Virus record (IMG/VR): IMGVR_UViG_3300025066_000080
Location: 1 to 35,090 of that record
DNA: 35,090 nt
From: a virus
Lineage: Duplodnaviria > Caudoviricetes
Strand: one strand, 5' to 3'
The notes beneath the pieces were generated by a model. That model searched no databases, was not told the DNA's origin, and saw nothing but the letters and a program-made list of their open reading frames with translations. Below, one piece after another: positions 149 through 35,090 of the stretch. Position numbers and translations under genes: made by a program. Each line of letters opens with the position of its first letter. The stretch's first letter is position 1.

Positions 149-339
149 AAGATGAAATAATAAGAGGCTTAAAAAAAGACGGCAAATTTATAATAGATGG
201 AGTAGGAGTATTTGAATTATTGCCACGAAGACAAGGAAAAACATTTTGTGGTTTTAGGAATATGGAAGGAACGCCAAGATTTTCAAAAAGAGTTCGTTTT
301 ACTAGCTCACTTAAATTTAGAAACGAAATATGCAAATAG
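145..339 (+). CDS. Small HU/IHF-like DNA-binding protein (allele A)
   Basis: IDGVGVFEL..R.GK...RVRFTSSLKFR resembles the HU beta-arm (I.GFG.F....R.....P.F.P...LK). The second allele at 34437 is conserved at protein level with mostly synonymous changes. Confidence 0.6.
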   Translation: MKDEIIRGLKKDGKFIIDGVGVFELLPRRQGKTFCGFRNMEGTPRFSKRVRFTSSLKFRNEICK

Positions 340-848
340 ATTTAATAAAAGAGAACGACCAAAACCCTCGTTTGATTAAAGAGGACGCTTTCAATAAATT
401 AGTTGAGTCTATTAAAGAAGATCCCCAAATGCTAGAAGCTCGACCTCTTGTTATAGATGAGAACAATGTAGTGCTTGGTGGGAATATGCGCCTAAAAGCC
501 CTGAAGCACCTAGAGTATAAAGATGTACCTGTTTATAAGGTTGAGGGCTGGACCGAAGAACAAAAACGCAGATTTATAATCAAAGACAATCTATCAGGAG
601 GACAATGGGATTACGATATACTTACATCTGAATATGACGCAGAAGAACTATCAGATTGGGGTATGGAAAACTTAGATAAATATTTGATTGAAGATTCAGA
701 GGAATTAATTGCCGAACCAACAGACAAACCTTTAACTATACAAATCTCTTTTAAAGATAGAGATGAATTGTATGAAGCTAAAGTAGAGATTGAGGGTATT
801 TTAGGTAAATATAATGCCAATCTCTCTGTTTCTGGTGGAGAACTATGA
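330..848 (+). CDS. ParB/Sulfiredoxin N-terminal domain protein (stand-alone allele)
   Basis: NPR.I, L.ESI, RPLVIDE...LGGN.RL.A and ..DN motifs are typical of phage ParB-like proteins found next to terminase and DNA modifiers. Confidence 0.85.
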   Translation: MQIDLIKENDQNPRLIKEDAFNKLVESIKEDPQMLEARPLVIDENNVVLGGNMRLKALKHLEYKDVPVYKVEGWTEEQKRRFIIKDNLSGGQWDYDILTSEYDAEELSDWGMENLDKYLIEDSEELIAEPTDKPLTIQISFKDRDELYEAKVEIEGILGKYNANLSVSGGEL

Positions 849-1423
849 TTTTATATCCAGCAACAAAAAAAGCAGTTCATTATGCAGTTAGAAACTATCA
901 TTATAGTCAAAAAGCCTCTGCAAGATGTTTTGATGTTGCTTTTTCCGTTTTTAATGACAAAAAAGAGTTCTGTGGAGTAATCTGTTATGGGAGAGGTGCA
1001 AATCCAAAGATTGCTTCACCTTATGGATTAAAACAAGGAGAGGTTTTGGAGTTACTAAGAGTTGCACTTAATGGAAAACAAGAAAGCACTTCTAAAGCAA
1101 TATCCATTTCGATTAAACTTTTGAAAAAGGCGAGTCCACTAACAAAAATATTAGTTTCCTATGCAGATAAGGGCCAGAACCATATAGGTATAATATATCA
1201 GGCAACTAATTGGATTTTTGAGACAGAATCAGAAAGTTCTGGATATGAGTACTATAAAGATGGAAAATGGTGGCACTCAAAATCACTTGCAAGATTTGAT
1301 AGGGCGAAAATGGAAAAGAGAAAAATGTCTGGAAAATATAAGTATATATATCCCTTATCAAAAGATATGTTATTATTATGTAAGGAGAGGGGAAAACCTT
1401 ATCCAAAAGCGAATATAGTGTAA
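845..1423 (+). CDS. mom: Mom-family adenine modification enzyme (GNAT-like fold)
   Basis: NYHYS, GVICYG, LELLRVAL, VSYADxxQxHxGIIYQATNWIF and C-terminal KYKYIYPL...PYPK match my recollection of phage Mu Mom homologues. Confidence 0.8.
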   Translation: MILYPATKKAVHYAVRNYHYSQKASARCFDVAFSVFNDKKEFCGVICYGRGANPKIASPYGLKQGEVLELLRVALNGKQESTSKAISISIKLLKKASPLTKILVSYADKGQNHIGIIYQATNWIFETESESSGYEYYKDGKWWHSKSLARFDRAKMEKRKMSGKYKYIYPLSKDMLLLCKERGKPYPKANIV

Positions 1424-1482
1424 TTGGTTATCACGCTCTGCTTCCAGTAGAGAGAAAGAGGTTCAAATCCTACTTATTCGCA
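1409..1482 (+). tRNA. tRNA-Gly(TCC)-like gene with a non-canonical T-stem, overlapping the mom stop codon
   Basis: Cloverleaf: acceptor GCGAATA/TATTCGC, D-arm GTG..CAC with GG, anticodon arm CTCTG-CTTCCAG-TAGAG, T-arm AGAGG-TTCAAAT-CCT(A)CT with a bulged A. Discriminator A; no encoded CCA. Confidence 0.82.
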
Positions 1483-1484
1483 CA

Positions 1485-1823
1485 ATGGCTGATAAAACAG
1501 ATAAAAAACAGAATAAAGACCACCTATTCAAAAAAGGGCAATCTGGTAATCCTAACGGAAGACCTCTTGGGGCTAAGAATTTTACTACTCTCTTTAAAGA
1601 AGCTGTGAAAAAGATTGCAGAAGACACAGGTATTGCTCCAGATGAAATTGAAAAGGACTTAATTATTAAAGGGATTACTGAAGCTAAAAAAGGGAAGTAC
1701 CAGTATCATAAAGATATATTTGACCGAGTATATGGGAAACCCCAAGAAAAGGTTGATATTACGACAAAAGGGGAACAGGTTACTGCAATTAATTATATAA
1801 TTCCAGATGGAAATAAACCTTAA
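1485..1823 (+). CDS. terS: Terminase small subunit (DUF5681-like N-terminus)
   Basis: FKKGQSGNPNGRP motif and DRVYGKP..KVD motif; lies immediately upstream of TerL. Confidence 0.8.
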   Translation: MADKTDKKQNKDHLFKKGQSGNPNGRPLGAKNFTTLFKEAVKKIAEDTGIAPDEIEKDLIIKGITEAKKGKYQYHKDIFDRVYGKPQEKVDITTKGEQVTAINYIIPDGNKP

Positions 1824-3225
1824 ACCAACACCTAAACAACATGAAGCCTACGAGGCTCTGAAAGATAAGGGGAGTCGCTTTGTTGTCTTTGGTGGTGCTG
1901 CTGGAGGTGGTAAATCGTGGTTAGCTTGTGAGTGGATACTAACTATGTGTGTGGCTTATCCCAACACACGTTGGTTTATCGCCAGAAACGAACTAACCAG
2001 ACTAATGGCTTCAACATATGTAACCTTTGGGAAGGTGGCTAAGTGGCATAATGTTGGTGGCTGGGCTTTAAATGGTGGTTATCACTATATTGAATTTAAG
2101 AATGGATCTAGGATTGACCTTATTGATGTTAGAAAAAACCCATCTGATCCCATGTTTGAGAGGTATGGTTCTACTGAATACACTGGTGGAGTACTGGAGG
2201 AGGCAGGAGAGATTGATTTCGGTGCTTTTGATGTTCTTAAATCTCGTGTTGGTAGACACATGAACAAGGACTACAATATTGACCCCAAGATTCTTATTAC
2301 ATGTAATCCCAAAAAGAACTGGTTATATAATTATGTATACAAACCATTTACCGAGGGCAAACTAGAAAAGGAGTTCAGATTTATTCAGAGTTTCTATAAA
2401 GATAATCCATACACGGCTGATACATACGAACAGCAGTTGAAATCTATTAAGGATAAGACTATGAAGGAAAGGCTTTTGTATGGTAACTGGGAATATGAGA
2501 ATAACCCACTAGCATTGATTGAGTATGACGCAATTACAGATATGTTTACTAATACTGTTGATGAATTTGAGGACAAGTTTATGTCTATTGATGTTGCTCG
2601 TTATGGAAGTGATAAGACTGTCTTGATGGTTTGGCAAGGCTTTAGATGTAAAAAGATAGAGTCTTACACAAAGACAGGGCTAGATGTTTTGGCAGAAGAA
2701 ATTAAAAGAATAGCTAAGGAAGAGAGAATACCCTTCAGCAAGATAGTTATTGATGAAGATGGTGTAGGAGGTGGTCTTGTGGATATGCTAAGGGGGTGTA
2801 GAGGATTTATGGCAAACAGGACTCCGTTTAATAACAAGCTAACAGGTAAGCCAGACAACTTTCAGAACCTGAAGACTCAGTGTACTTTCCTATTAGCCGA
2901 CTTCATTAATGACCATAAGATTGCGATAGATTGTGAAGATGAGGATATAAAAAACAACCTAATATCAGAACTAGAAGTTATTCGGCAAAAAGAAGGGGTT
3001 TATGATAGTAAACTCCAGATAGAAAGCAAAGATAAAATAAAGGAGATACTGGGTCACTCTCCTGACTTCTCTGATGCACTGATGATGAGAATGTTCTTTG
3101 AATTACAAAGACCTTTAAAACAAATTGCTGCGGTAGATCCTATTAATACTATGTTAGGGAGGTCTTATCTGAAGGCTAAAAACCCTAATACTGGAGGAGC
3201 AGATAACAATGATGATTATTTATAA
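1807..3225 (+). CDS. terL: Terminase large subunit
   Basis: PTPKQ, Walker A GGAAGGGKS, Walker B-like VLEEAGE, coupling motif TCNP, nuclease motifs SIDVARYGSD and SPDFSDAL. Confidence 0.95.
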   Translation: MEINLKPTPKQHEAYEALKDKGSRFVVFGGAAGGGKSWLACEWILTMCVAYPNTRWFIARNELTRLMASTYVTFGKVAKWHNVGGWALNGGYHYIEFKNGSRIDLIDVRKNPSDPMFERYGSTEYTGGVLEEAGEIDFGAFDVLKSRVGRHMNKDYNIDPKILITCNPKKNWLYNYVYKPFTEGKLEKEFRFIQSFYKDNPYTADTYEQQLKSIKDKTMKERLLYGNWEYENNPLALIEYDAITDMFTNTVDEFEDKFMSIDVARYGSDKTVLMVWQGFRCKKIESYTKTGLDVLAEEIKRIAKEERIPFSKIVIDEDGVGGGLVDMLRGCRGFMANRTPFNNKLTGKPDNFQNLKTQCTFLLADFINDHKIAIDCEDEDIKNNLISELEVIRQKEGVYDSKLQIESKDKIKEILGHSPDFSDALMMRMFFELQRPLKQIAAVDPINTMLGRSYLKAKNPNTGGADNNDDYL

Positions 3226-7944: not shown

Positions 7945-8752
7945 CATAGTCGGCTATGGAATTTGTGGTCCAAATGAGAAGTATCTTGATAAAACTCTTA
8001 AGTGCTTTGATTCTCTTTGCGATACTGTCGTTCTGCTTACTAATAATACCGATCCTGATAGCGTACGAAAGATTAGAGAGATGGGATTTGAAGTTAGAGA
8101 AGACAACAGAGAGTGGGGGCTGAACCAGAACAAGATTAAAGAAGATTTTGTGTCTACTTTAGGAGAATATAATCCTGATTGGCTTGTTTGCTTGGATATG
8201 GATGAGGTGTTACACGTGGAACGAGAAGAATTGGAACAAATGATGACCAAATGTAACTCTATGAGTGTCTACATTGTTAATTTGTGGGAGAAGGGGTGGA
8301 AAAGGAGGTGGAGCTTCTGGAATGTGAGGGTCTGGAAGTGGAATGGGGTGACTAAGTTCGCTAATAGACCACTACATTGTGGATTAGCCCCTGAATGGGC
8401 GTACCACTACGCTTCTGCTGTACCAATACCTTTAATTCACAGGGGTCTGAAAGATAGAGAAGCACGCCAGAGAAAGATAGCACGCTATAAAAAATACGAT
8501 CCAACCGCAAAGTATAGAGATAAGAGCTATTATGACGCTCTAGCAGATGATACTTACGAAGAATATGACCTAGAAAAGATACAGGAATCACTAGATGAGG
8601 AGATCAGGGAAGTAGTAATGAAACAACCACGAGATATAAGGGATAAGAAGTTCTATATAGTTGAAAGTCCTGATGGTAGACAAATGGACATACCAGAGGC
8701 AAGCCTAGAGGAGACTCTAAAGAGAGGATTTAAGTTGATAAATGAGATATGA
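7925..8752 (+). CDS. Glycosyltransferase, GT-A fold (GT2-like)
   Basis: NEKYL..TL, DWLVCLDMDE (DxD motif), LIHRG...R.RK..RY. Confidence 0.8.
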   Translation: MTSSGNNIVGYGICGPNEKYLDKTLKCFDSLCDTVVLLTNNTDPDSVRKIREMGFEVREDNREWGLNQNKIKEDFVSTLGEYNPDWLVCLDMDEVLHVEREELEQMMTKCNSMSVYIVNLWEKGWKRRWSFWNVRVWKWNGVTKFANRPLHCGLAPEWAYHYASAVPIPLIHRGLKDREARQRKIARYKKYDPTAKYRDKSYYDALADDTYEEYDLEKIQESLDEEIREVVMKQPRDIRDKKFYIVESPDGRQMDIPEASLEETLKRGFKLINEI

Positions 8753-9615
8753 GAATAGTTTATATAGGAAATTTTGATTATATGTGGGACGAGGAGCATG
8801 TTGCTAGATGTTTTGAGAAATTAGGACACGAGGTAATGAGAGTTCCTGAGAAAAAACCCATGAGGGTTATAGTACCTGCTATACTAGAATTTAAACCTGA
8901 TTTTGTATTGTGGGCTAAATTGAGAGTTGGTAGACCAAGTGAGATAATCAGAATTTGTAAAGAGAACAATATAAAAACAGTCTGCTGGATATGGGATTTG
9001 TATTTTGGTTATCAGAGAGAACATCAGATTAAGAACAATAATATGTTCAAGGCTGATCTGGTTTTTACCTCTGATGATGGGCATGAAGAAGACTGGAAGG
9101 AACATGGAATTGCACATAAGTGTATTAGACAGGGAATCTACGATGAAGAAGCTGTCTTACTACCCACAGAAGAAAAAGAACATGATGTTGTCTTTGTTGG
9201 ATCTGAAAATCCCTTGAATGAAGACAGAACAAAACTCTTTAAAGACTTTGATTTTAAGTGGTTTGGAAAGAAAGATACTAATGAAGTTAGAGGAATGAGA
9301 CTGAATGAATTATATACTAAGACAAAGATAGTAATTGGAGATTCGGTGTATTCTCCGCACTATTGGAGTAATAGGGTTGTTGAAACGCTTGGTCGGGGTG
9401 GTTTTTTGATTCATCAGGAAGTAGAGGGGCTTAAAGAAGCCTATCCTCACCTTGTTACGTACAAGAGGGGAGATTATAAAGACTTAAAAGAAAAAATAGC
9501 GTATTATTTAGGTAATGATAAGGAGCGAGAAGAGATTATAAAAAAGAATTATGAGTGGGTGCTAGACAATCACTTGTGTTCACTTAAATGTAAAGAATTA
9601 TGCAAAAACCTGTAA
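8749..9615 (+). CDS. Glycosyltransferase, GT-B fold (CgeB / Glyco_trans_1_2-like)
   Basis: DVVFVGS, LY.KTKIVIG, YWSNRVVETLGRGGFLI, L.EKI.YYL....RE.I...HL. Confidence 0.85.
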   Translation: MRIVYIGNFDYMWDEEHVARCFEKLGHEVMRVPEKKPMRVIVPAILEFKPDFVLWAKLRVGRPSEIIRICKENNIKTVCWIWDLYFGYQREHQIKNNNMFKADLVFTSDDGHEEDWKEHGIAHKCIRQGIYDEEAVLLPTEEKEHDVVFVGSENPLNEDRTKLFKDFDFKWFGKKDTNEVRGMRLNELYTKTKIVIGDSVYSPHYWSNRVVETLGRGGFLIHQEVEGLKEAYPHLVTYKRGDYKDLKEKIAYYLGNDKEREEIIKKNYEWVLDNHLCSLKCKELCKNL

Positions 9616-10073
9616 ACAAAGAAGAGTTTTGGAGAGAAAGATTAAACAATTCAGCTAAACTAGAGCATTCTGTATATATTACAAGTGAGAAGGACTGGAA
9701 TTTCATTAATAAAACCCATCTAGAGTTGTTAATGCCATATCAGTACAAGAAAGTTCTAGATGCTGGTTGTGGTTATGGTAGATGGTCTGAACTCTTTTCT
9801 GATTACACTGGAACAGACTTCTCATCAGACTTTATTAATAAAGCTATCGAGTTACACCCAGACAAAAAGTTCGTTAAGGCAAACATGAAAAAATTGCCAT
9901 TTAAAGATGATGAGTTTGATTTGTCATTCTGTGTATCTATTAAAGATATGATAGTAGACAATCTTGGAGAAGTAGAGTGGGCTAAGATGTTTGAAGAACT
10001 GAAGCGAGTATCAAAAAAAGTCATGATATTGGAGTACACTAACCCAGATGAATATGAAGTTCATATTAAATAA
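9600..10073 (+). CDS. Class I SAM-dependent methyltransferase
   Basis: VLDAGCGYG, GTDFS, LPFKDDEFDL, ELKRV motifs. Confidence 0.9.
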   Translation: MQKPVNKEEFWRERLNNSAKLEHSVYITSEKDWNFINKTHLELLMPYQYKKVLDAGCGYGRWSELFSDYTGTDFSSDFINKAIELHPDKKFVKANMKKLPFKDDEFDLSFCVSIKDMIVDNLGEVEWAKMFEELKRVSKKVMILEYTNPDEYEVHIK

Positions 10074-10332
10074 AAAAGACTATCTTGAGTACAGAAAGGG
10101 CATGAATAATACTGTGGAGATTTTAGATATCGCAGTTTATTCTGAAAGAAATAAAGGTACAGGAACTAATCTATTAAAGATGTTGGAGAATGAGGATCTT
10201 GGACACATCTATGCCTTCACCAGAGAGAGTAATGAATTGGCACAAGGATTCTACAAGAAGAATGGTTTTAGGGGAACTCTACTACCTAATTTCTATCCAG
10301 ATGAGAGTGCAATTGTATATATAAAATCATGA
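10048..10332 (+). CDS. GNAT-family acetyltransferase (minimal)
   Basis: IAV...RNKGTGT.LL acetyl-CoA motif A and N..AQGFYKKNGF motif B. Confidence 0.85.
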   Translation: MNMKFILNKKDYLEYRKGMNNTVEILDIAVYSERNKGTGTNLLKMLENEDLGHIYAFTRESNELAQGFYKKNGFRGTLLPNFYPDESAIVYIKS

Positions 10333-11240
10333 CAGGTTCAATAGTATTAGCAACAGAACAAGGGTTGGGGTATCTAGCAAAAGCCTTCTATGATAACGGA
10401 ATTATAGACAAAATCGCCATTCACCCTCACTCTACAAGGAAAAGTCATACAGAATGGTATCCAGACGCAGTGAGTGTGTCTGAATTACTTGAGTGTGACA
10501 CTATTTTGTTCTTTGAAACACCTTTTGATCTAGATTTTATGAAGGAAGCAAAAGCAAAGGGTATTAAGATTGTCTTCATGCCAATGTATGAATGTTCTAA
10601 TCCTAGGATAGTAGAAATGGCGGATGTAATCATTAATCCATCAGACTTAGACCAAGAGTATTATCCTGATGGTATCAGACTGAATGTTCCTGTTGATGTT
10701 AAGTGGCGAAAACGCTCCGTAGCAAAGGTTTTTGTGCATAATGCAGGTAATGGTGGATTAGGTGGTAGAAATGGCACTACGGAGCTTCTGAAGGCAATGA
10801 AGCATGTAAAATCCCCTATCAAACTAATTGTTAGAAGCCAAATGCCCATTAAACAGATAGATGACCCAAGAATCGAATATAGGATAGGGCAGTTTGATGA
10901 TATTTGGGCAGAAGGAGATGTCTTTGTTTTTCCAGAGAAGTTTAATGGTTTATCACTTCCAGCACAGGAAGCATATGCAAGTGGAATGGTCGTGATGTCT
11001 GGAGATCGCTTTCCCATGAACACTTGGCTACCGAAAGAACACCTAATACCAGTTAAAGGGACGACAAAAGAGAGATTAGCTGTACTAATTGATGTAGCAG
11101 AGTTTTCCCCAGTTGATATCGCAAAGAGTATTGATAATATTTATGGCAAGAGTATAATAATAACATCAGAACAAGGAAGAGAGTGGGCAGAGCAGAACTC
11201 ATGGGAAGTATTAGCACCTAAATATAAAGAATTATTATGA
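10329..11240 (+). CDS. Glycosyltransferase, GT-B fold (GT4-like)
   Basis: DVFVFPEKFNGLSLPAQEAYASGMVV (variant EX7E motif); C-terminal SW.....Y. Confidence 0.85.
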   Translation: MTGSIVLATEQGLGYLAKAFYDNGIIDKIAIHPHSTRKSHTEWYPDAVSVSELLECDTILFFETPFDLDFMKEAKAKGIKIVFMPMYECSNPRIVEMADVIINPSDLDQEYYPDGIRLNVPVDVKWRKRSVAKVFVHNAGNGGLGGRNGTTELLKAMKHVKSPIKLIVRSQMPIKQIDDPRIEYRIGQFDDIWAEGDVFVFPEKFNGLSLPAQEAYASGMVVMSGDRFPMNTWLPKEHLIPVKGTTKERLAVLIDVAEFSPVDIAKSIDNIYGKSIIITSEQGREWAEQNSWEVLAPKYKELL

Positions 11241-12223
11241 AAACAGCACTGATCACTGGTTTGACTGGACAAGACGGAAGTTATTTAGCAGAACTCTTGA
11301 TTGAAAAGGGCTATGAAGTTCATGGAATTGTTAGAAGGGCTTCAACCTTTAATAGAGAGAGAATAGACCATTTAGATATACAGCAAAACCTTCATTATGG
11401 AGACATGACTGACTTTGCTTCCTTGATTAAGATAATTACAGAGGTTCAGCCAGATGAGATCTATAATCTAGCTGCACAATCTCATGTAGCTGTTTCTTTT
11501 GATACACCACAATATACAGGACAAGTTGACGCAATAGGAACTCTTAATTTACTGGAGGCGGTACGTATTGTTGATAAGAACATTAAGATATACCAAGCTT
11601 CTACATCAGAAATGTTTGCTGGGAATGTTGAGGACTGTCCATACAATGAGGATAGTAAGTTTAGTCCCAAGAGTCCTTATGGAGTGGCTAAGTTGTATTC
11701 ATATGAGTTGTGCAGAATCTATAAAGAGAGTTACGGGATGTTTATCGCTAGTGGAATCTTATTTAATCACGAATCAGAGAGGCGAGGTGAGAACTTTGTA
11801 ACCAGAAAGATTACAAAAGGAATCGCAGACATTCTTCATGGAAAAACCACTACTATTAAACTTGGTAATATCACAGCAGAGAGGGATTGGGGACACGCCA
11901 AAGACTACGTGAAAGCAATGTGGTTAATGCTTCAGCAACCTGAACCAAAGAACTATGTAATCGCCACAGGTGAGAGTTATTCTGTCATTGATTTCGTTAG
12001 AAAAGCTTTCAACATTGCGAACAGGTTGTATGGGTCAGATCTATCAGTTGAAAAACATATCGAGAGTGATAGTGAGTTTATGCGACCCAATGAGGTTCAA
12101 ACACTTCTGGGAGATAGTTCAAGGGCAAGAGATGAACTGGATTGGCAACCAGAGATAGATTTTGAGAGATTAATAACTTTAATGGTTAAAAATGACTATG
12201 AAAATACCAGTAAGCAAGCCTAG
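11237..12223 (+). CDS. gmd: GDP-mannose 4,6-dehydratase
   Basis: ALITGLTGQDGSYLAE, YNLAAQSHV, YQASTSE, SPYGVAK, LFNHES.RRG..FVTRKI, RDWGHAKDYV. Confidence 0.97.
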   Translation: MKTALITGLTGQDGSYLAELLIEKGYEVHGIVRRASTFNRERIDHLDIQQNLHYGDMTDFASLIKIITEVQPDEIYNLAAQSHVAVSFDTPQYTGQVDAIGTLNLLEAVRIVDKNIKIYQASTSEMFAGNVEDCPYNEDSKFSPKSPYGVAKLYSYELCRIYKESYGMFIASGILFNHESERRGENFVTRKITKGIADILHGKTTTIKLGNITAERDWGHAKDYVKAMWLMLQQPEPKNYVIATGESYSVIDFVRKAFNIANRLYGSDLSVEKHIESDSEFMRPNEVQTLLGDSSRARDELDWQPEIDFERLITLMVKNDYENTSKQA

Positions 12224-13247
12224 TTTAACAGGCAACGAGGCAAAATATGTAAATGAAACTATTATAACTAACTGGATCTCCAGTAAGGGTGAGTTTGTTG
12301 ATGAATTTGAGAGAGAGTGGGCTAAATATAACAAAGTTAAATATGGAGTAGCTTGTTCGTCTGGAACTTCAGCACTTGTACTCGCATTAAAAGCCTGTGG
12401 TGTAAAAGAAGGAGACGAGGTTATCGTCCCTGAGTTTACGATGGTTGCAACTGCTTGGGCGGTTACTTATGTTGGAGCAAAACCCGTATTTGTTGATTGC
12501 GATGATACTCTAAATATAAATCCTGATTTAATTAAAGATAAGATAACAAACAAGACTAAAGCCATTATCCCCGTATCAATCTATGGTAGAAAATATAGCA
12601 GGAAGGTATTAAAGGTTATTAGGGAGCATAGGAAAAAGATTTGGGTGATTGAGGATCTTGCCGAGGCACACGGAACAAAGGTTCGTGGGGATATTGCCTG
12701 TTATTCATTGTTTGGGAATAAGATAATCACCTCTGGAGAAGGTGGAATCTGCCTAACTAATGACAAGAAACTAGCAGAGCTTATGAAATGGTATGGAGCT
12801 ATGTGTTTTAATGAAAGCCACACTTTTATCCACCCAGATATAGGATACAATTTTAGAATGACCGCCATGCAAGGTGCGGTAGCTCTGGCACAGGTTGAAA
12901 GATTTGATGAGATTATAGAAAAGCGAAAGCAGATAGAGAAATGGTATAACGCTAACTTGCCAAGAAAGGTTAAGATGCCCAAAAGAGATGTACTGTGGAT
13001 GTATGATATTAATGTTGGAAAAAAACAGGGTATGGTCACCAAGCTTTTGAAGGAGAGAGGTATTGAAACAAGACACTTCTTTAAACCTATGAGCCAACAG
13101 CCTATGTATAATTATAAGAATTACAGGTACACAAATGCCTTCAAATGGGCTTATCAAGGAATATATTTACCTACATATACAGATATGACAGAAGAAGATG
13201 TGATATTTGTTTGCGATAACCTGAAAGAGGTACTTGCTATGGTATAA
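12192..13247 (+). CDS. DegT/DnrJ/EryC1/StrS PLP aminotransferase, GDP-perosamine synthase-like (start probably 12198)
   Basis: WISS.G.FV, SSGTSAL, IEDLAEAHG, SLFGNKIITSGEGG, GYNFRMT, LPT; adjacent to gmd as per/rfbE usually is. Confidence 0.9.
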   Translation: MTMKIPVSKPSLTGNEAKYVNETIITNWISSKGEFVDEFEREWAKYNKVKYGVACSSGTSALVLALKACGVKEGDEVIVPEFTMVATAWAVTYVGAKPVFVDCDDTLNINPDLIKDKITNKTKAIIPVSIYGRKYSRKVLKVIREHRKKIWVIEDLAEAHGTKVRGDIACYSLFGNKIITSGEGGICLTNDKKLAELMKWYGAMCFNESHTFIHPDIGYNFRMTAMQGAVALAQVERFDEIIEKRKQIEKWYNANLPRKVKMPKRDVLWMYDINVGKKQGMVTKLLKERGIETRHFFKPMSQQPMYNYKNYRYTNAFKWAYQGIYLPTYTDMTEEDVIFVCDNLKEVLAMV

Positions 13248-18132: not shown

Positions 18133-20094
18133 ATGAGCATATTTTCAAAAGTAAAAGACTTCTTCTCTGGGACAACCCGATATAATCGTAATGATTCATC
18201 AGGTTCTAGTGGACCAATTAATTTAGATTCGTTCTCTCTTAGGAAGAGTGCACAAAACTCAGGATCTACACTTCCACAGCTTAATCTTAATCCCGTTGCT
18301 AATTCAACACCCGCTATTGCCTCTGGTGCGACAAGTTTTAGAGGAAACAATAGACAACAGCAAGTTGATACACCCGTATTCGGAGATGTCCCACAATCAA
18401 GTATCCCCTCTTTCGCTACACCTGCACCAGCTATATCAGAAAAACCAGTGACTGTTGACAACAAGATTAGTTCCAACAATCTACGAGGAGACAATACTTT
18501 TGTAGATAGCTCGGTATTTGGTACAAGTAGTAGTTCTAGTGAAGATTTGGGTGCTGTTGCTGACAGATTTGGTACAGGAATACCACAACAAGGAACAGGA
18601 GATAAAGAATTAAAAGATTTTCTTGGTCTTTCTGATAAATTAGCAGAAGAAGGTGATAGAACTCTTGGATTACAAGACGAACTAGGGTTTAGTGAGGCTA
18701 ATCAAGCTATCGCAGACTTAAATGCACAATATGCTTCAACTAAAAGGAATTATGAGAAAAGATTGGAGGATATTAGGAGTAATCCACAATTAAAGTCTAA
18801 GGCTGGTATTAATTTTGAATTAAATGAAGTAACCAGAAAAGCTAACTCACATCTAGCAGACATTGCTATTCAACAGCAGGCTGCACAAGGAAACCTAACA
18901 GCCATTAACGATACTATTACAGCTAAGATAGATGCAGAATTTGAGCCTATCAGGAGTCGAATTGATAACCTGAAGGATTACTTTACTCTGAGGAACGCTG
19001 ATCTAACAGATAGCGAAAAATTAACATTGCAAAGTGAAATTAGAAGGCAGGAATCAGATTATGAGAGCCAAAGAGACCAAGCCAAAAATATAGAACAAGC
19101 TGGTGTATGGCAAGAACTTATAAATAATGGACAATATGAGATGAAAGATGTTCCACAAGATGTCGTTCCTTATCTAACTCCTAAATTGCAGGCTGAGTGG
19201 ACAGATGAGATGATTGCACCTATTACAGATAAGTTAAGTAATGTGAATAGCCTATTGGATACAGTTGGAAGTTCTAATGCTGTTGGTCCAAACCCACTAG
19301 CAAGAATCAATCTCTTTGACCCACTAACTGCTTCAAAGTCTAACTTTATTGCTGGAGTTCAAAGATTAACTTCACAAGAAACTCTTAATACTCTTATTGA
19401 ACTAAAAAGGGCTGGTGGAACACTTGGTGCTTTGTCAGAAGGTGAGAAAGCCATGCTTGAATCTGCTGCCTCAAATATCGGTACTTGGGCACAGAAAGAC
19501 AAGAACGGGAATATTGTGGGATATAAAACAACAGAGAAAGCCTTTACAGAAGAACTACAAAGACTACAAGACATCTCGCAAAAGGCTTTGTTGCGAGCTG
19601 ATATCGTCCCTATGTCCCAGAAAACAAATATCCTAACAGACATGCTCTTTAGGGATAACCCGACTTGGAGTGATGAAGATATTTCCGAGGCTGTTGAAAG
19701 AACTTTACCTAGATACTTAACAGATTTTAACTCGGTTGGAAACACCTCAGCTTCCAAAATTTCCAAAGCGATAAAACAAGTTGAGAGTAGCGGAAATTAT
19801 AATGCAAAAGGATCTAGTGGAGAGTTCGGAGCTTATCAGTTTATGCCAAATACATGGAAGATGTGGGCAGGAGAGTTTCTTGGAAACCCAGAGGCACAAC
19901 CAACTAAATCTAATCAGGACTTTGTTGCAGAATCTAAAATCTCACAACTAATTGATCAAGGGTATGGTCCAGAACAAATCGCACTAATCTGGAATGGTGG
20001 AACTCCTACTAGGAAGAAGGGAGTAAATCAATTCGGGGTACGCTATGACTCAGGGGCTTATGCAGACAAGGTTATCAAACAATTAAACGTATAA
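18133..20094 (+). CDS. Putative DNA ejection (internal virion) protein with C-terminal lytic transglycosylase domain
   Basis: IKQVESSGNY, GAYQFMP.TW and WNGG motifs of the lysozyme-like SLT fold; disordered and helical N-terminal part. Confidence 0.75.
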   Translation: MSIFSKVKDFFSGTTRYNRNDSSGSSGPINLDSFSLRKSAQNSGSTLPQLNLNPVANSTPAIASGATSFRGNNRQQQVDTPVFGDVPQSSIPSFATPAPAISEKPVTVDNKISSNNLRGDNTFVDSSVFGTSSSSSEDLGAVADRFGTGIPQQGTGDKELKDFLGLSDKLAEEGDRTLGLQDELGFSEANQAIADLNAQYASTKRNYEKRLEDIRSNPQLKSKAGINFELNEVTRKANSHLADIAIQQQAAQGNLTAINDTITAKIDAEFEPIRSRIDNLKDYFTLRNADLTDSEKLTLQSEIRRQESDYESQRDQAKNIEQAGVWQELINNGQYEMKDVPQDVVPYLTPKLQAEWTDEMIAPITDKLSNVNSLLDTVGSSNAVGPNPLARINLFDPLTASKSNFIAGVQRLTSQETLNTLIELKRAGGTLGALSEGEKAMLESAASNIGTWAQKDKNGNIVGYKTTEKAFTEELQRLQDISQKALLRADIVPMSQKTNILTDMLFRDNPTWSDEDISEAVERTLPRYLTDFNSVGNTSASKISKAIKQVESSGNYNAKGSSGEFGAYQFMPNTWKMWAGEFLGNPEAQPTKSNQDFVAESKISQLIDQGYGPEQIALIWNGGTPTRKKGVNQFGVRYDSGAYADKVIKQLNV

Positions 20095-25427: not shown

Positions 25428-25808
25428 ATGAACGCAACGAATAAAACAAAACAGGTGTTGATAGCCGAGGACGAGAGAATGCTTGCTTCTGCTATAAAAA
25501 CAACCCTCATGAAAGAGGGTGTGGATTGTGATACATCTTTTGATGGTAAGGAAGCTCTGAGAAAAACTGACAAAAAAGAATACGACTTGATTCTCTTAGA
25601 TATGAAAATGCCTATATGTGATGGTTTTTGTTTCATTAACGCCTATAAGAAAGATACACCTATCATAATCATCACGAACAACGACATCTATTCTCTGAAG
25701 GAGGAAGTTGCTCGAAAAAAGATTAATGTAGAAAACGTTATAGACTTTATACAGAAGTCAGACATCCACATTCACGAGTTAGCTCATTATGTAAAATCAA
25801 TTCTATGA
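25428..25808 (+). CDS. Single-domain response regulator (CheY-like receiver)
   Basis: VLIAEDE, DG.EAL, DLILLDMKMP..DG (phospho-acceptor Asp), PIIIIT, FIQK; all catalytic positions present. Confidence 0.9.
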   Translation: MNATNKTKQVLIAEDERMLASAIKTTLMKEGVDCDTSFDGKEALRKTDKKEYDLILLDMKMPICDGFCFINAYKKDTPIIIITNNDIYSLKEEVARKKINVENVIDFIQKSDIHIHELAHYVKSIL

Positions 25809-30400: not shown

Positions 30401-30745
30401 ATGAATTTATTACCTAATATAGATATCAATGGAAACTTAGAAGATGTTAAGGAAGTTAAAAAGGAAACAAACGTTAGAAAGAAAAGAATAAGAAAATCAA
30501 GAAATAGATCTGAAAATAAAGTTGAAGTTTTAGGATATTTTGAGGAATGTTCTAAATGTAATAAATTGATGGAGAGGAGAAAACATAAAACAATTACAGA
30601 TAAGCAAACTAATAAAGTTTATTACTATTCAGAGTGGGATCTTTGTAAGAGTTGTGGACATTTACAGCATTATGAGAAATTCAAGGTCCTGAATCCAGAT
30701 GTTGAAGAGTTAAATCAAAAGACTGAGTTCATAAGAAATATCTAA
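30401..30745 (+). CDS. Hypothetical Zn-ribbon protein
   Basis: CSKC ... CKSCGH pairs and a basic patch. Confidence 0.7.
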   Translation: MNLLPNIDINGNLEDVKEVKKETNVRKKRIRKSRNRSENKVEVLGYFEECSKCNKLMERRKHKTITDKQTNKVYYYSEWDLCKSCGHLQHYEKFKVLNPDVEELNQKTEFIRNI

Positions 30746-34137: not shown

Positions 34138-34440
34138 ATGAAATTAAAAAACCCATTCAAAGACGTAGTAAGAAATCTGTATCTATACCAGTATAATTGT
34201 CAGGATTGTGGTAGATCAGATAGGGGGTTGGAACTTCATCACATAATCGGCAGGAAATCCAACTCTAAACTTAATGCAATAGTTTTATGTTTAGACTGTC
34301 ATAAGAAGTGTGGACATTCTAGAGAAGAAGAAAAGAAGTACGCACAAATTACTATTCGCTTTCATTTAAGGGAGAAGAATAAATTAGAAAAAGAGGATAT
34401 TGAGTTTTATCAGGATAATGTGTTATTATATCAAGTATGA
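34138..34440 (+). CDS. HNH endonuclease
   Basis: CQDCG, LELHHI, N..VLCLDCH...H. Confidence 0.88.
   Translation: MKLKNPFKDVVRNLYLYQYNCQDCGRSDRGLELHHIIGRKSNSKLNAIVLCLDCHKKCGHSREEEKKYAQITIRFHLREKNKLEKEDIEFYQDNVLLYQV
34293..34419 (+). repeat. Exact 127-bp direct repeat, copy 2
   Basis: Identical to 1-127. Confidence 0.97.
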
Positions 34441-34631
34441 AAGATGAAATAATAAGTGGTCTAAAAAGAGATGGAAAATTCGTAATAGATGGTGTGGGAG
34501 TGTTTGAGTTATTACCTAGAAGAAAAGGAAAAACATTTTGTGGTTTTAGAAATACGGAGGGAACGCCACGATTCTCCAAAAGGGTTAAATTCACCAGCTC
34601 ATTAAAACTAAGAAACGAAATATGCAAATAA
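34437..34631 (+). CDS. Small HU/IHF-like protein (allele B)
   Basis: Near-identical protein to 145..339 with many third-position changes. Confidence 0.6.
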   Translation: MKDEIISGLKRDGKFVIDGVGVFELLPRRKGKTFCGFRNTEGTPRFSKRVKFTSSLKLRNEICK

Positions 34632-35090
34632 GTTTAATAAAGGAAAACGACCAAAATCCACGCTTAATCAAAGAAGAGGCGTTTGAAAAGCTTGTTAGCT
34701 CTATTAAAGAAGACCCACAGATGTTGGAAGCCCGCCCATTGATTATAGATGAGAATAATATTGTATTAGGGGGAAATATGAGGTTAAAGGCACTAAAACA
34801 TCTAAAGTATGAGGATGTACCAGTTTATCAGGTAAAGGACTGGACTAAGGAACAGAAACACCGATTTATAGTAAAGGATAATCTGTCAGGTGGTGAATGG
34901 GACTATGATCTACTGACAGCACAGTATGACGCAGAAGAACTATCAAACTGGGGCATGGAAGGCTTAGATAAATACTTTATAGAAGAGCCAGATGAAAAAG
35001 ATGACGAAGTACCAGAGGTGGTGGGTGAACCGAAGAGTAAACTTGGTGATATTTATGAGTTGGGAGAACACCGAGTATTGTGTGGTGATA
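34622..35090 (+). CDS. ParB-domain protein probably fused to a DNA N4/N6-methyltransferase (truncated by the window end)
   Basis: Hand translation: MQISLIKENDQNPRLIK... homologous to 330..848 up to LDKY.IE, then DEVPEV..EPKSKLGDIYELGEHRVLCGD, the usual linker into the MTase domain of ParB-MTase fusions. Confidence 0.8.
   Translation, partial: MQISLIKENDQNPRLIKEEAFEKLVSSIKEDPQMLEARPLIIDENNIVLGGNMRLKALKHLKYEDVPVYQVKDWTKEQKHRFIVKDNLSGGEWDYDLLTAQYDAEELSNWGMEGLDKYFIEEPDEKDDEVPEVVGEPKSKLGDIYELGEHRVLCGD

Follow-up and report, generated by a model that had tools for sequence, protein, structure and literature searches.

A bulged tRNA-Gly-like RNA linked to phage mom genes, and its probable role as a dedicated glycyl donor for Mom

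A tRNA-Gly-like RNA carrying one unpaired base in its T-stem overlaps the mom-like DNA hypermodification gene of a phage, and this bulged RNA is real, conserved and linked to mom in both search directions, from the gene and from the RNA. We analysed the whole 35-kb phage record (IMGVR_UViG_3300025066_000080, 35,090 nt, hereafter the window), which occurs in marine metagenome runs. Its RNA is probably a dedicated, non-ribosomal glycyl donor for Mom and a member of a widespread family of mom-linked phage RNAs, as judged from sequence comparison. In phage Mu, Mom moves glycine from Gly-tRNA-Gly onto the N6 of adenine, uses all three tRNA-Gly isoacceptors of E. coli and rejects Gly-tRNA-Ala (PMC13219725, Silva et al. 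2026). How Mom gets Gly-tRNA past EF-Tu, and how translation bears the drain, were left open by Silva et al.; a private non-ribosomal donor would answer both questions.

The mom locus and its RNA

The features of the locus are as follows.
330..848, + strand: ParB-like N-terminal-domain gene, the usual upstream partner of mom in the cassette
845..1423, + strand: mom-like DNA adenine hypermodification gene (PF25680, E 2e-36, 126 bits, cut-off 27.1)
1409..1482, + strand: tRNA-Gly-like RNA, anticodon UCC at 1443-1445 (ARAGORN, RF00005 and family model)
1436..1452, + strand: anticodon arm, stem CTCTG/TAGAG with G31-U39, loop CTTCCAG with a possible C32-G38 closing pair
1457..1474, + strand: T-arm, with A49-U65, G50-C64, bulged A (1472), A51-U63, G52-C62 and G53-C61
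1485..1823, + strand: probable terminase small subunit gene (terS, DUF5681; weak match, E 5e-4)
1807-3225: terL, after the probable terS

The window Mom also matches phrog_1384 (E 8e-44), Mu Mom by profile comparison (99%) and PDB 8bv8 (E 4.5e-19). Mu Mom belongs to the same enzyme family (PF25680; PDB 8bv8) at 27% identity, and equivalents of its H58, Y59, R111, S124, D149, Y159 and W181 are retained, the catalytic R111, S124 and D149 corresponding to R72, S83 and D108 of the window protein. The column of R151, which is essential in Mu Mom (PMC13219725), holds G110 instead. Phage Mu lacks a comparable RNA next to its mom gene and relies on the isoacceptors of its host. The Mom activity of the window clade is predicted from its sequence.

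The RNA contains the last four codons and the stop of mom (the overlap is the final 15 nt of the gene), and the ATG of the probable terS begins two bases past the discriminator A1482, the intervening letters being CA. The sequence-only reading had extended the RNA to 1484; the sequence places its end at 1482. ARAGORN called tRNA-Gly(TCC) at 1409-1483, and Rfam RF00005 scored 49 bits at 1409-1482 (threshold 29). The covariance model of the mom-linked family gave 72.2 bits, with the window copy itself in the seed. All features listed in the earlier reading are present, among them the acceptor stem (GCGAATA/TATTCGC), the D-loop GG, the T-loop TTCAAAT, G31-U39, the discriminator A73 (A1482) and the absence of an encoded CCA. 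The anticodon loop, which it called intact, is a canonical-looking 7-nt loop, but the C32-G38 pair can close it. The T-stem reads AGAGG/CCT-A-CT, with A1472 bulging out between pairs 50-64 and 51-63, at a distance of two base pairs from the acceptor junction, and RF00005 puts an extra base in the 3' strand of this stem. The uninterrupted five-pair T-stem of elongator tRNAs is therefore missing, as the bulged A lies between positions 63 and 64; the A-U at 51-63 is a further feature, absent from the earlier list. The bacterial tRNA-Gly identity elements G1-C72, C2-G71, G3-C70, C35 and C36 (PMC9976931) are all in place, whereas the discriminator U73 of that set is replaced by A73. Unconstrained folding of 1409-1485 gave a rod and not a cloverleaf (z -2.8), a result with little meaning for an unmodified tRNA.

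Contigs from five of eight metagenome runs, three marked as potential origins of the window DNA and two unmarked, cover the RNA without a differing letter or gap (contigs and not raw reads were compared, and the other three runs did not cover it), and two IMG/VR contigs are identical to the window sequence. The extra A, for which an error had been a concern, is thus not a product of assembly.

The RNA family beside mom

Searches with the window Mom retrieved 80 IMG/VR loci, and a 41-sequence alignment retrieved 80 genome loci. A tRNA-Gly-like RNA was found in 55 of the former and 28 of the latter, mostly within 50 nt of the mom end. Detection relied on a structural parser and on the covariance model, whose 36 seed RNAs came from the same loci and match by construction; relative to the model, the parser gained L365 and lost L050 and L361. 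The parser penalised bulges and demanded a GC start/end of the acceptor, so that the conservation of G1-C72 and C2-G71 is partly built in. One unpaired base at the same position of the T-stem 3' strand, two pairs from the acceptor junction, was present in 66 of 67 distinct mom-linked RNAs (63 A, 2 G and 1 U), and in 42 of 43 once sequences had been clustered at 80% identity. The T-stem irregularity noticed in the window is therefore conserved. Two forms of the stem exist: three pairs, A and two pairs in 38 RNAs, including the window copy, and two pairs, A and two pairs in 28.

This register was supported by a MAFFT alignment that covered 36 of the 38 five-pair RNAs and omitted two whose D-arm is reduced. 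With the bulge, 180 of 180 T-stem cells were paired and two-sided changes occurred in four of the five pairs; in the unbulged register of the same alignment, 79.4% were paired and column 52-66 was unpaired in 35 of the 36 RNAs. Covariation extended to all four stems and to both sides of the bulge (18 of 21 pairs with compensatory changes, 95.5% of cells paired). Random decay across the arms, which the sequence-only reading had named as evidence for a pseudogene, is thereby excluded. Of the 55 copies in IMG/VR, ARAGORN at a lowered threshold recovered only 37, of which it labelled 18 as Gly; such misses may explain why the family went unseen. Two RNAs (L365:1938-2003 and L395:3049-3114) have a D-arm reduced to 12 nt, with anticodon loops GAACCCC and ACACCCT, and at four loci (L023, L024, L088 and L136) two mom-like genes lie close together beside a single RNA.

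Searches starting from the RNA led back to mom. A bulged-arm pattern gave 120 loci from about 700 stretches estimated in IMG/VR, and 80 with full flanks were analysed. Seventy of these parse as bulged, and a Mom match lies within 1.5 kb in 68, or in 69 when L128, recognised by a broader profile, is included; the remaining bulged RNA (L091) adjoins a GNAT gene with a weak Mom-like match. No Mom was found at the five unbulged and five unparsed loci of this set, and two of the unparsed ones (L138 and L112) match the family covariance model. A second pattern, built on a GTGC loop (about 270 loci estimated), had Mom in 70 of the 80 loci analysed. Three of its ten exceptions are not tRNA-like by eye and four are fragments 4-19% complete, in which no mom was found. 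In the other three, mom lies 1.3 kb off (L459), a partial match sits at a contig end (L467), or the mom genes are distant (L527). The last is a complete 380-kb jumbo phage with two tandem bulged RNAs (L527:1452-1633) and, about 39 kb from them, a pair of neighbouring mom genes. No mom was found in the records, 4-70% complete, that hold the family RNAs of L138, L112, L466, L468, L515 and L526, and the unknown genes next to the RNAs of L112 and L459 were not recognised as Mom in profile comparisons.

Ordinary phage tRNA-Gly genes share with the family the cloverleaf, the GCG acceptor start, the CC anticodon and the frequent lack of an encoded CCA (missing from 30 of 81 controls), but differ in having canonical loops and in their surroundings: a pattern for ordinary viral tRNA-Gly (about 7900 loci estimated) had Mom beside 0 of the 80 loci analysed, as judged with the narrow Mom profile only. 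This control pattern excludes bulges by design, and the background bulge rate was therefore taken from bystander phage tRNAs in the same loci, of which 63 of 64 were unbulged and one was bulged.

The arrangement of the RNA relative to mom is flexible. Of the 68 RNA-first loci, 30 have it downstream on the same strand, 21 on the opposite strand and 17 upstream. The gene on its other side is often terS, elsewhere DNA polymerase/primase, ParB, HNH, sigma factor or portal; a tie to terS or packaging was rejected, since terS is replaced by other genes while mom persists. In a quick tree (no support values), Moms accompanied by the RNA occupy several deep branches, and 43 of the 68 are only distant relatives of the window Mom; co-evolution of RNA type with Mom clade was not seen in that tree, across which T-stem forms and orientations are mixed.

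Features tied to charging are kept by the family while those tied to decoding are lost or vary. The CC anticodon is present in 65 of 67 mom-linked RNAs, the GCG start in 64, U73 in 63 and C74 in 65. By contrast with the controls, a canonical anticodon loop is found in 6/67 (controls 71/81), U33 in 26/65 (79/80), and A34, which is absent from normal tRNA-Gly (PMC8007984), in 25/65 (2/80). Positions 32 and 38 form C-G or G-C in 24 of the 38 seven-nucleotide loops (0 of 74 in controls), and G51-C63 is present in 2 of 39 five-pair stems (49 of 75). Also variable are U8 (38/67), TTC (41/67) and the D-loop GG (40/67). The window copy is one of only 4 of the 67 to retain U8, D-loop GG, TTC and a canonical-looking anticodon loop together.

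Three traits that the sequence-only reading had taken as signs of a non-proteinogenic tRNA do not mark the family: A73 occurs in 4 of 67 RNAs, CCA is encoded in 26 and G31-U39 is found in 7. Nevertheless, eight further mom-linked copies whose stems are intact carry A73, and a scan for A73 returned 26 loci, including 7 bulged Gly-type RNAs, all beside Mom, two of them being the window's own sequence. A73 is thus a tolerated sub-variant and not a family signature, perhaps a host-specific one.

Among cultured phages, 19 of 22 mom regions, Mu included, have no such RNA within flanks of 1-1.5 kb. In Salinibacter phage B2_17 (OR896349, RNA at 19761-19833; L405:2085-2157), mom is followed by a bulged RNA with G33, annotated by the depositors as plain tRNA-Gly. 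Arthrobacter phage Shade (NC_042015; L408:2080-2150) has an unannotated tRNA-Gly-like RNA overlapping the mom stop, unbulged and with C49-G65, A51-U63 and A8; the L358 RNA likewise has an unbulged stem with A51-U63. In Microbacterium phage Appa, the RNA next to mom is a near-normal tRNA-Gly(CCC) whose stem is normal and has G51-C63. When four family RNAs were compared with cultured phages by BLAST, B2_17 itself was returned, the rest being other tRNAs or chance matches; the matches in Seahorse and D51 reached 46-48 bits, in records without a Mom match.

A proposed donor for Mom and the alternatives

EF-Tu reads T-stem pairs 49-65, 50-64 and 51-63 (PMC3239215), and the bulge falls between two of these three. 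With the Schrader-Uhlenbeck model (table in PMC3239215), the window stem is calculated at -9.5 kcal/mol against a Gly(UCC) mean of -10.8, i.e., 1.3 weaker, by a model that takes in only the three pairs, was not made for bulged stems and cannot score the bulge. The same value, -9.5 kcal/mol, belongs to the staphylococcal non-proteinogenic tRNA-Gly outlier in that source.

In S. aureus, the non-proteinogenic tRNA-Gly(UCC) NP1-NP3 are donors for FemX, FemA and FemB (PMC12256121, PMC13443448, PMC3239215); they are described as lacking G49-U65 and G51-C63 (PMC12256121), as well as G18-G19 and U55, and as forming one additional C-G pair within the anticodon loop (PMC13443448). The window RNA resembles them, as they are described there, in lacking G49-U65 and G51-C63 (it has A49-U65 and A51-U63), in the C32-G38 pair that shortens its anticodon loop, in retained GlyRS identity and in the calculated EF-Tu affinity. 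Part of the phage family also drops the D-loop GG and U55, and the partner, as in the Fem system, is predicted to be a GNAT-fold aminoacyl transferase. Unlike the NP tRNAs, the window copy retains G18G19 and U55 and has A73, and it has a T-stem bulge, which the cited accounts of NP1-NP3 do not describe. Moreover, the NP set serves the Fem transferases from the bacterial chromosome, whereas the window RNA is encoded by a phage, fused to the gene of its enzyme and next to Mom, and its acceptor would be DNA adenine and not peptidoglycan. The window RNA would work in the manner of the staphylococcal non-proteinogenic tRNA-Gly but does not belong to their set.

We propose that host RNases excise the RNA from the transcript, that CCA is added and host GlyRS charges it, that EF-Tu binds the charged RNA poorly, and that Mom then spends the glycyl-RNA to convert adenine of phage DNA to 6-NcmdA. 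The gain would be a free Gly-tRNA pool that need not be won from EF-Tu and does not drain late protein synthesis. Because the GlyRS marks are kept, the marks for the ribosome are shed, the EF-Tu site is deformed and the linkage to Mom holds in any orientation, a private donor is the simplest account. The donor interpretation of the sequence-only reading is thus supported; the diversion of charged RNA from EF-Tu to Mom is what we infer. Taken as a single claim, we lean towards a two-part phage module of Mom and its own tRNA class, in which one bulged base would make the RNA invisible to EF-Tu, acting as a structural and not a sequence-tuned antideterminant, and in which the RNA would act in trans and be swappable between distant Mom clades.

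Some observations stand against a donor role. The RNA is dispensable for Mom, as Mu Mom works with host tRNA-Gly and 25 of the 80 close mom loci have no RNA within the flanks analysed; the Mu-essential R151 corresponds to G110 in the window Mom; some family RNAs come from (partial) records with no mom found; and the bulge is not obligatory, as in L358 and Shade. With its near-canonical features, the window copy could still decode. E. coli GlyRS charges a U73A variant about 11-fold less well, and the activity of bacterial DTD is about 100-fold higher on A73, although a bacterial-type alpha2 GlyRS accepts both A73 and U73 (PMC9908026, PMC8754408), and the Mom authors suggest in the peer-review file of PMC13219725 that U73 may be a Mom determinant. 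A73 would therefore argue slightly against the window copy as an efficient donor and would, if anything, be a handicap.

The RNA might instead be an additional general-purpose tRNA-Gly(UCC), a supplement for translation as well as for Mom, with a bulge that is tolerated and not selected, which we consider unlikely. It would fit the U8, G18G19, TTC, U33 and 7-nt anticodon loop of the window copy, the codon usage of the window, in which GGA is the commonest glycine codon (286 of 665), and the normal stem in Appa. But the bulge keeps a single position in 66 of the 67 RNAs even as the paired bases covary, 61 of the 67 have loops unable to read codons normally, and ordinary phage tRNA-Gly was beside mom in none of the 80 control loci.

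Even less likely is a counter-defence RNA, which would replace or decoy host tRNA-Gly hit by anticodon nucleases or GNAT toxins, with mom as a fellow anti-defence gene. Toxins that acetylate Gly-tRNA-Gly are known (PMC7595197), and the sequence around CC in the anticodon loop is highly variable, which would be expected if the RNA had to escape anticodon nucleases; however, a replacement tRNA must bind EF-Tu, and the linkage is specific to mom across several Mom branches and gene contexts. Such a role could coexist with the donor model as an added advantage.

A cis-acting processing signal, whereby RNase P/Z cutting removes the mom stop and the terS start and so throttles toxic Mom, is very unlikely. 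In 55 of 67 cases, the mom frame terminates within the RNA or continues across it. In the window, the RNA includes the mom stop and only two bases separate it from the terS ATG, so that a transcript cut for its release would lose both the stop and the terS start. Yet 21 of the 68 RNA-first loci have the RNA on the opposite strand and 17 have it upstream, it lies about 39 kb off in L527, and cutting would not require C35-C36 and U73. The overlap may reflect compaction or side control, and truncation of some mRNAs may be a side effect. Finally, a sequencing error, pseudogene or leftover integration site is highly improbable: A73, the absent CCA and G31-U39 in the window copy would suit it, but five-run identity and compensatory changes in all four stems refute error and random decay, A73 recurs in intact copies, and the full-length RNA lies within a packaging operon in a window where profile searches matched no integrase, so that only the single window copy could be weakened.

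If the donor reading is true, dedicated non-proteinogenic tRNAs would extend from the staphylococcal cell wall to phage DNA modification, phages would have a new reason to carry tRNA genes, some annotated 'phage tRNA-Gly' would not be for decoding, and a single base would act as a natural switch routing aminoacyl-tRNA away from the ribosome. In the mainly open-access literature searched, phage tRNA-Gly that is linked to mom or bulged in the T-stem was not found described, and no phage tRNA beside mom is mentioned in the main text of PMC13219725, its preprint or its peer-review file.

Host clues and other features of the window

Shine-Dalgarno-like motifs precede only 3 of the 38 window genes, and TGnTATAAT occurs just before several gene starts (3233, 6793, 13240, 16070 and 18115), together hinting at short-leader transcripts in a host without Shine-Dalgarno use. 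Promoter-like sites near the RNA were not above chance (6 found against 7.0 expected). The capsid protein has a weak match in 1 of 151 genomes of a Patescibacteria phylum set (E 1.5e-5) and in 0 of 151 Bacteroidota. The three tRNA-Gly found in a Patescibacteria genome all carry U73, and A73 is therefore not explained as a host norm.

The two ends of the window form a near-repeat (1-798 and 34293-35090), identical over 127 nt at the start and with 177 differences in 798. A ParB-like gene is present in each copy; one leads to mom, and the other (34622-end) is ParB/methyltransferase-like. Between the capsid and adaptor genes (8749-13247) lie glycosyltransferase, methyltransferase, GDP-mannose dehydratase-like and DegT aminotransferase genes, a possible cluster for virion or host surface glycosylation. 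A stand-alone response-regulator receiver domain is encoded at 25428-25808, and an ORF at 30401-30745 has a below-cut-off deaminase match.
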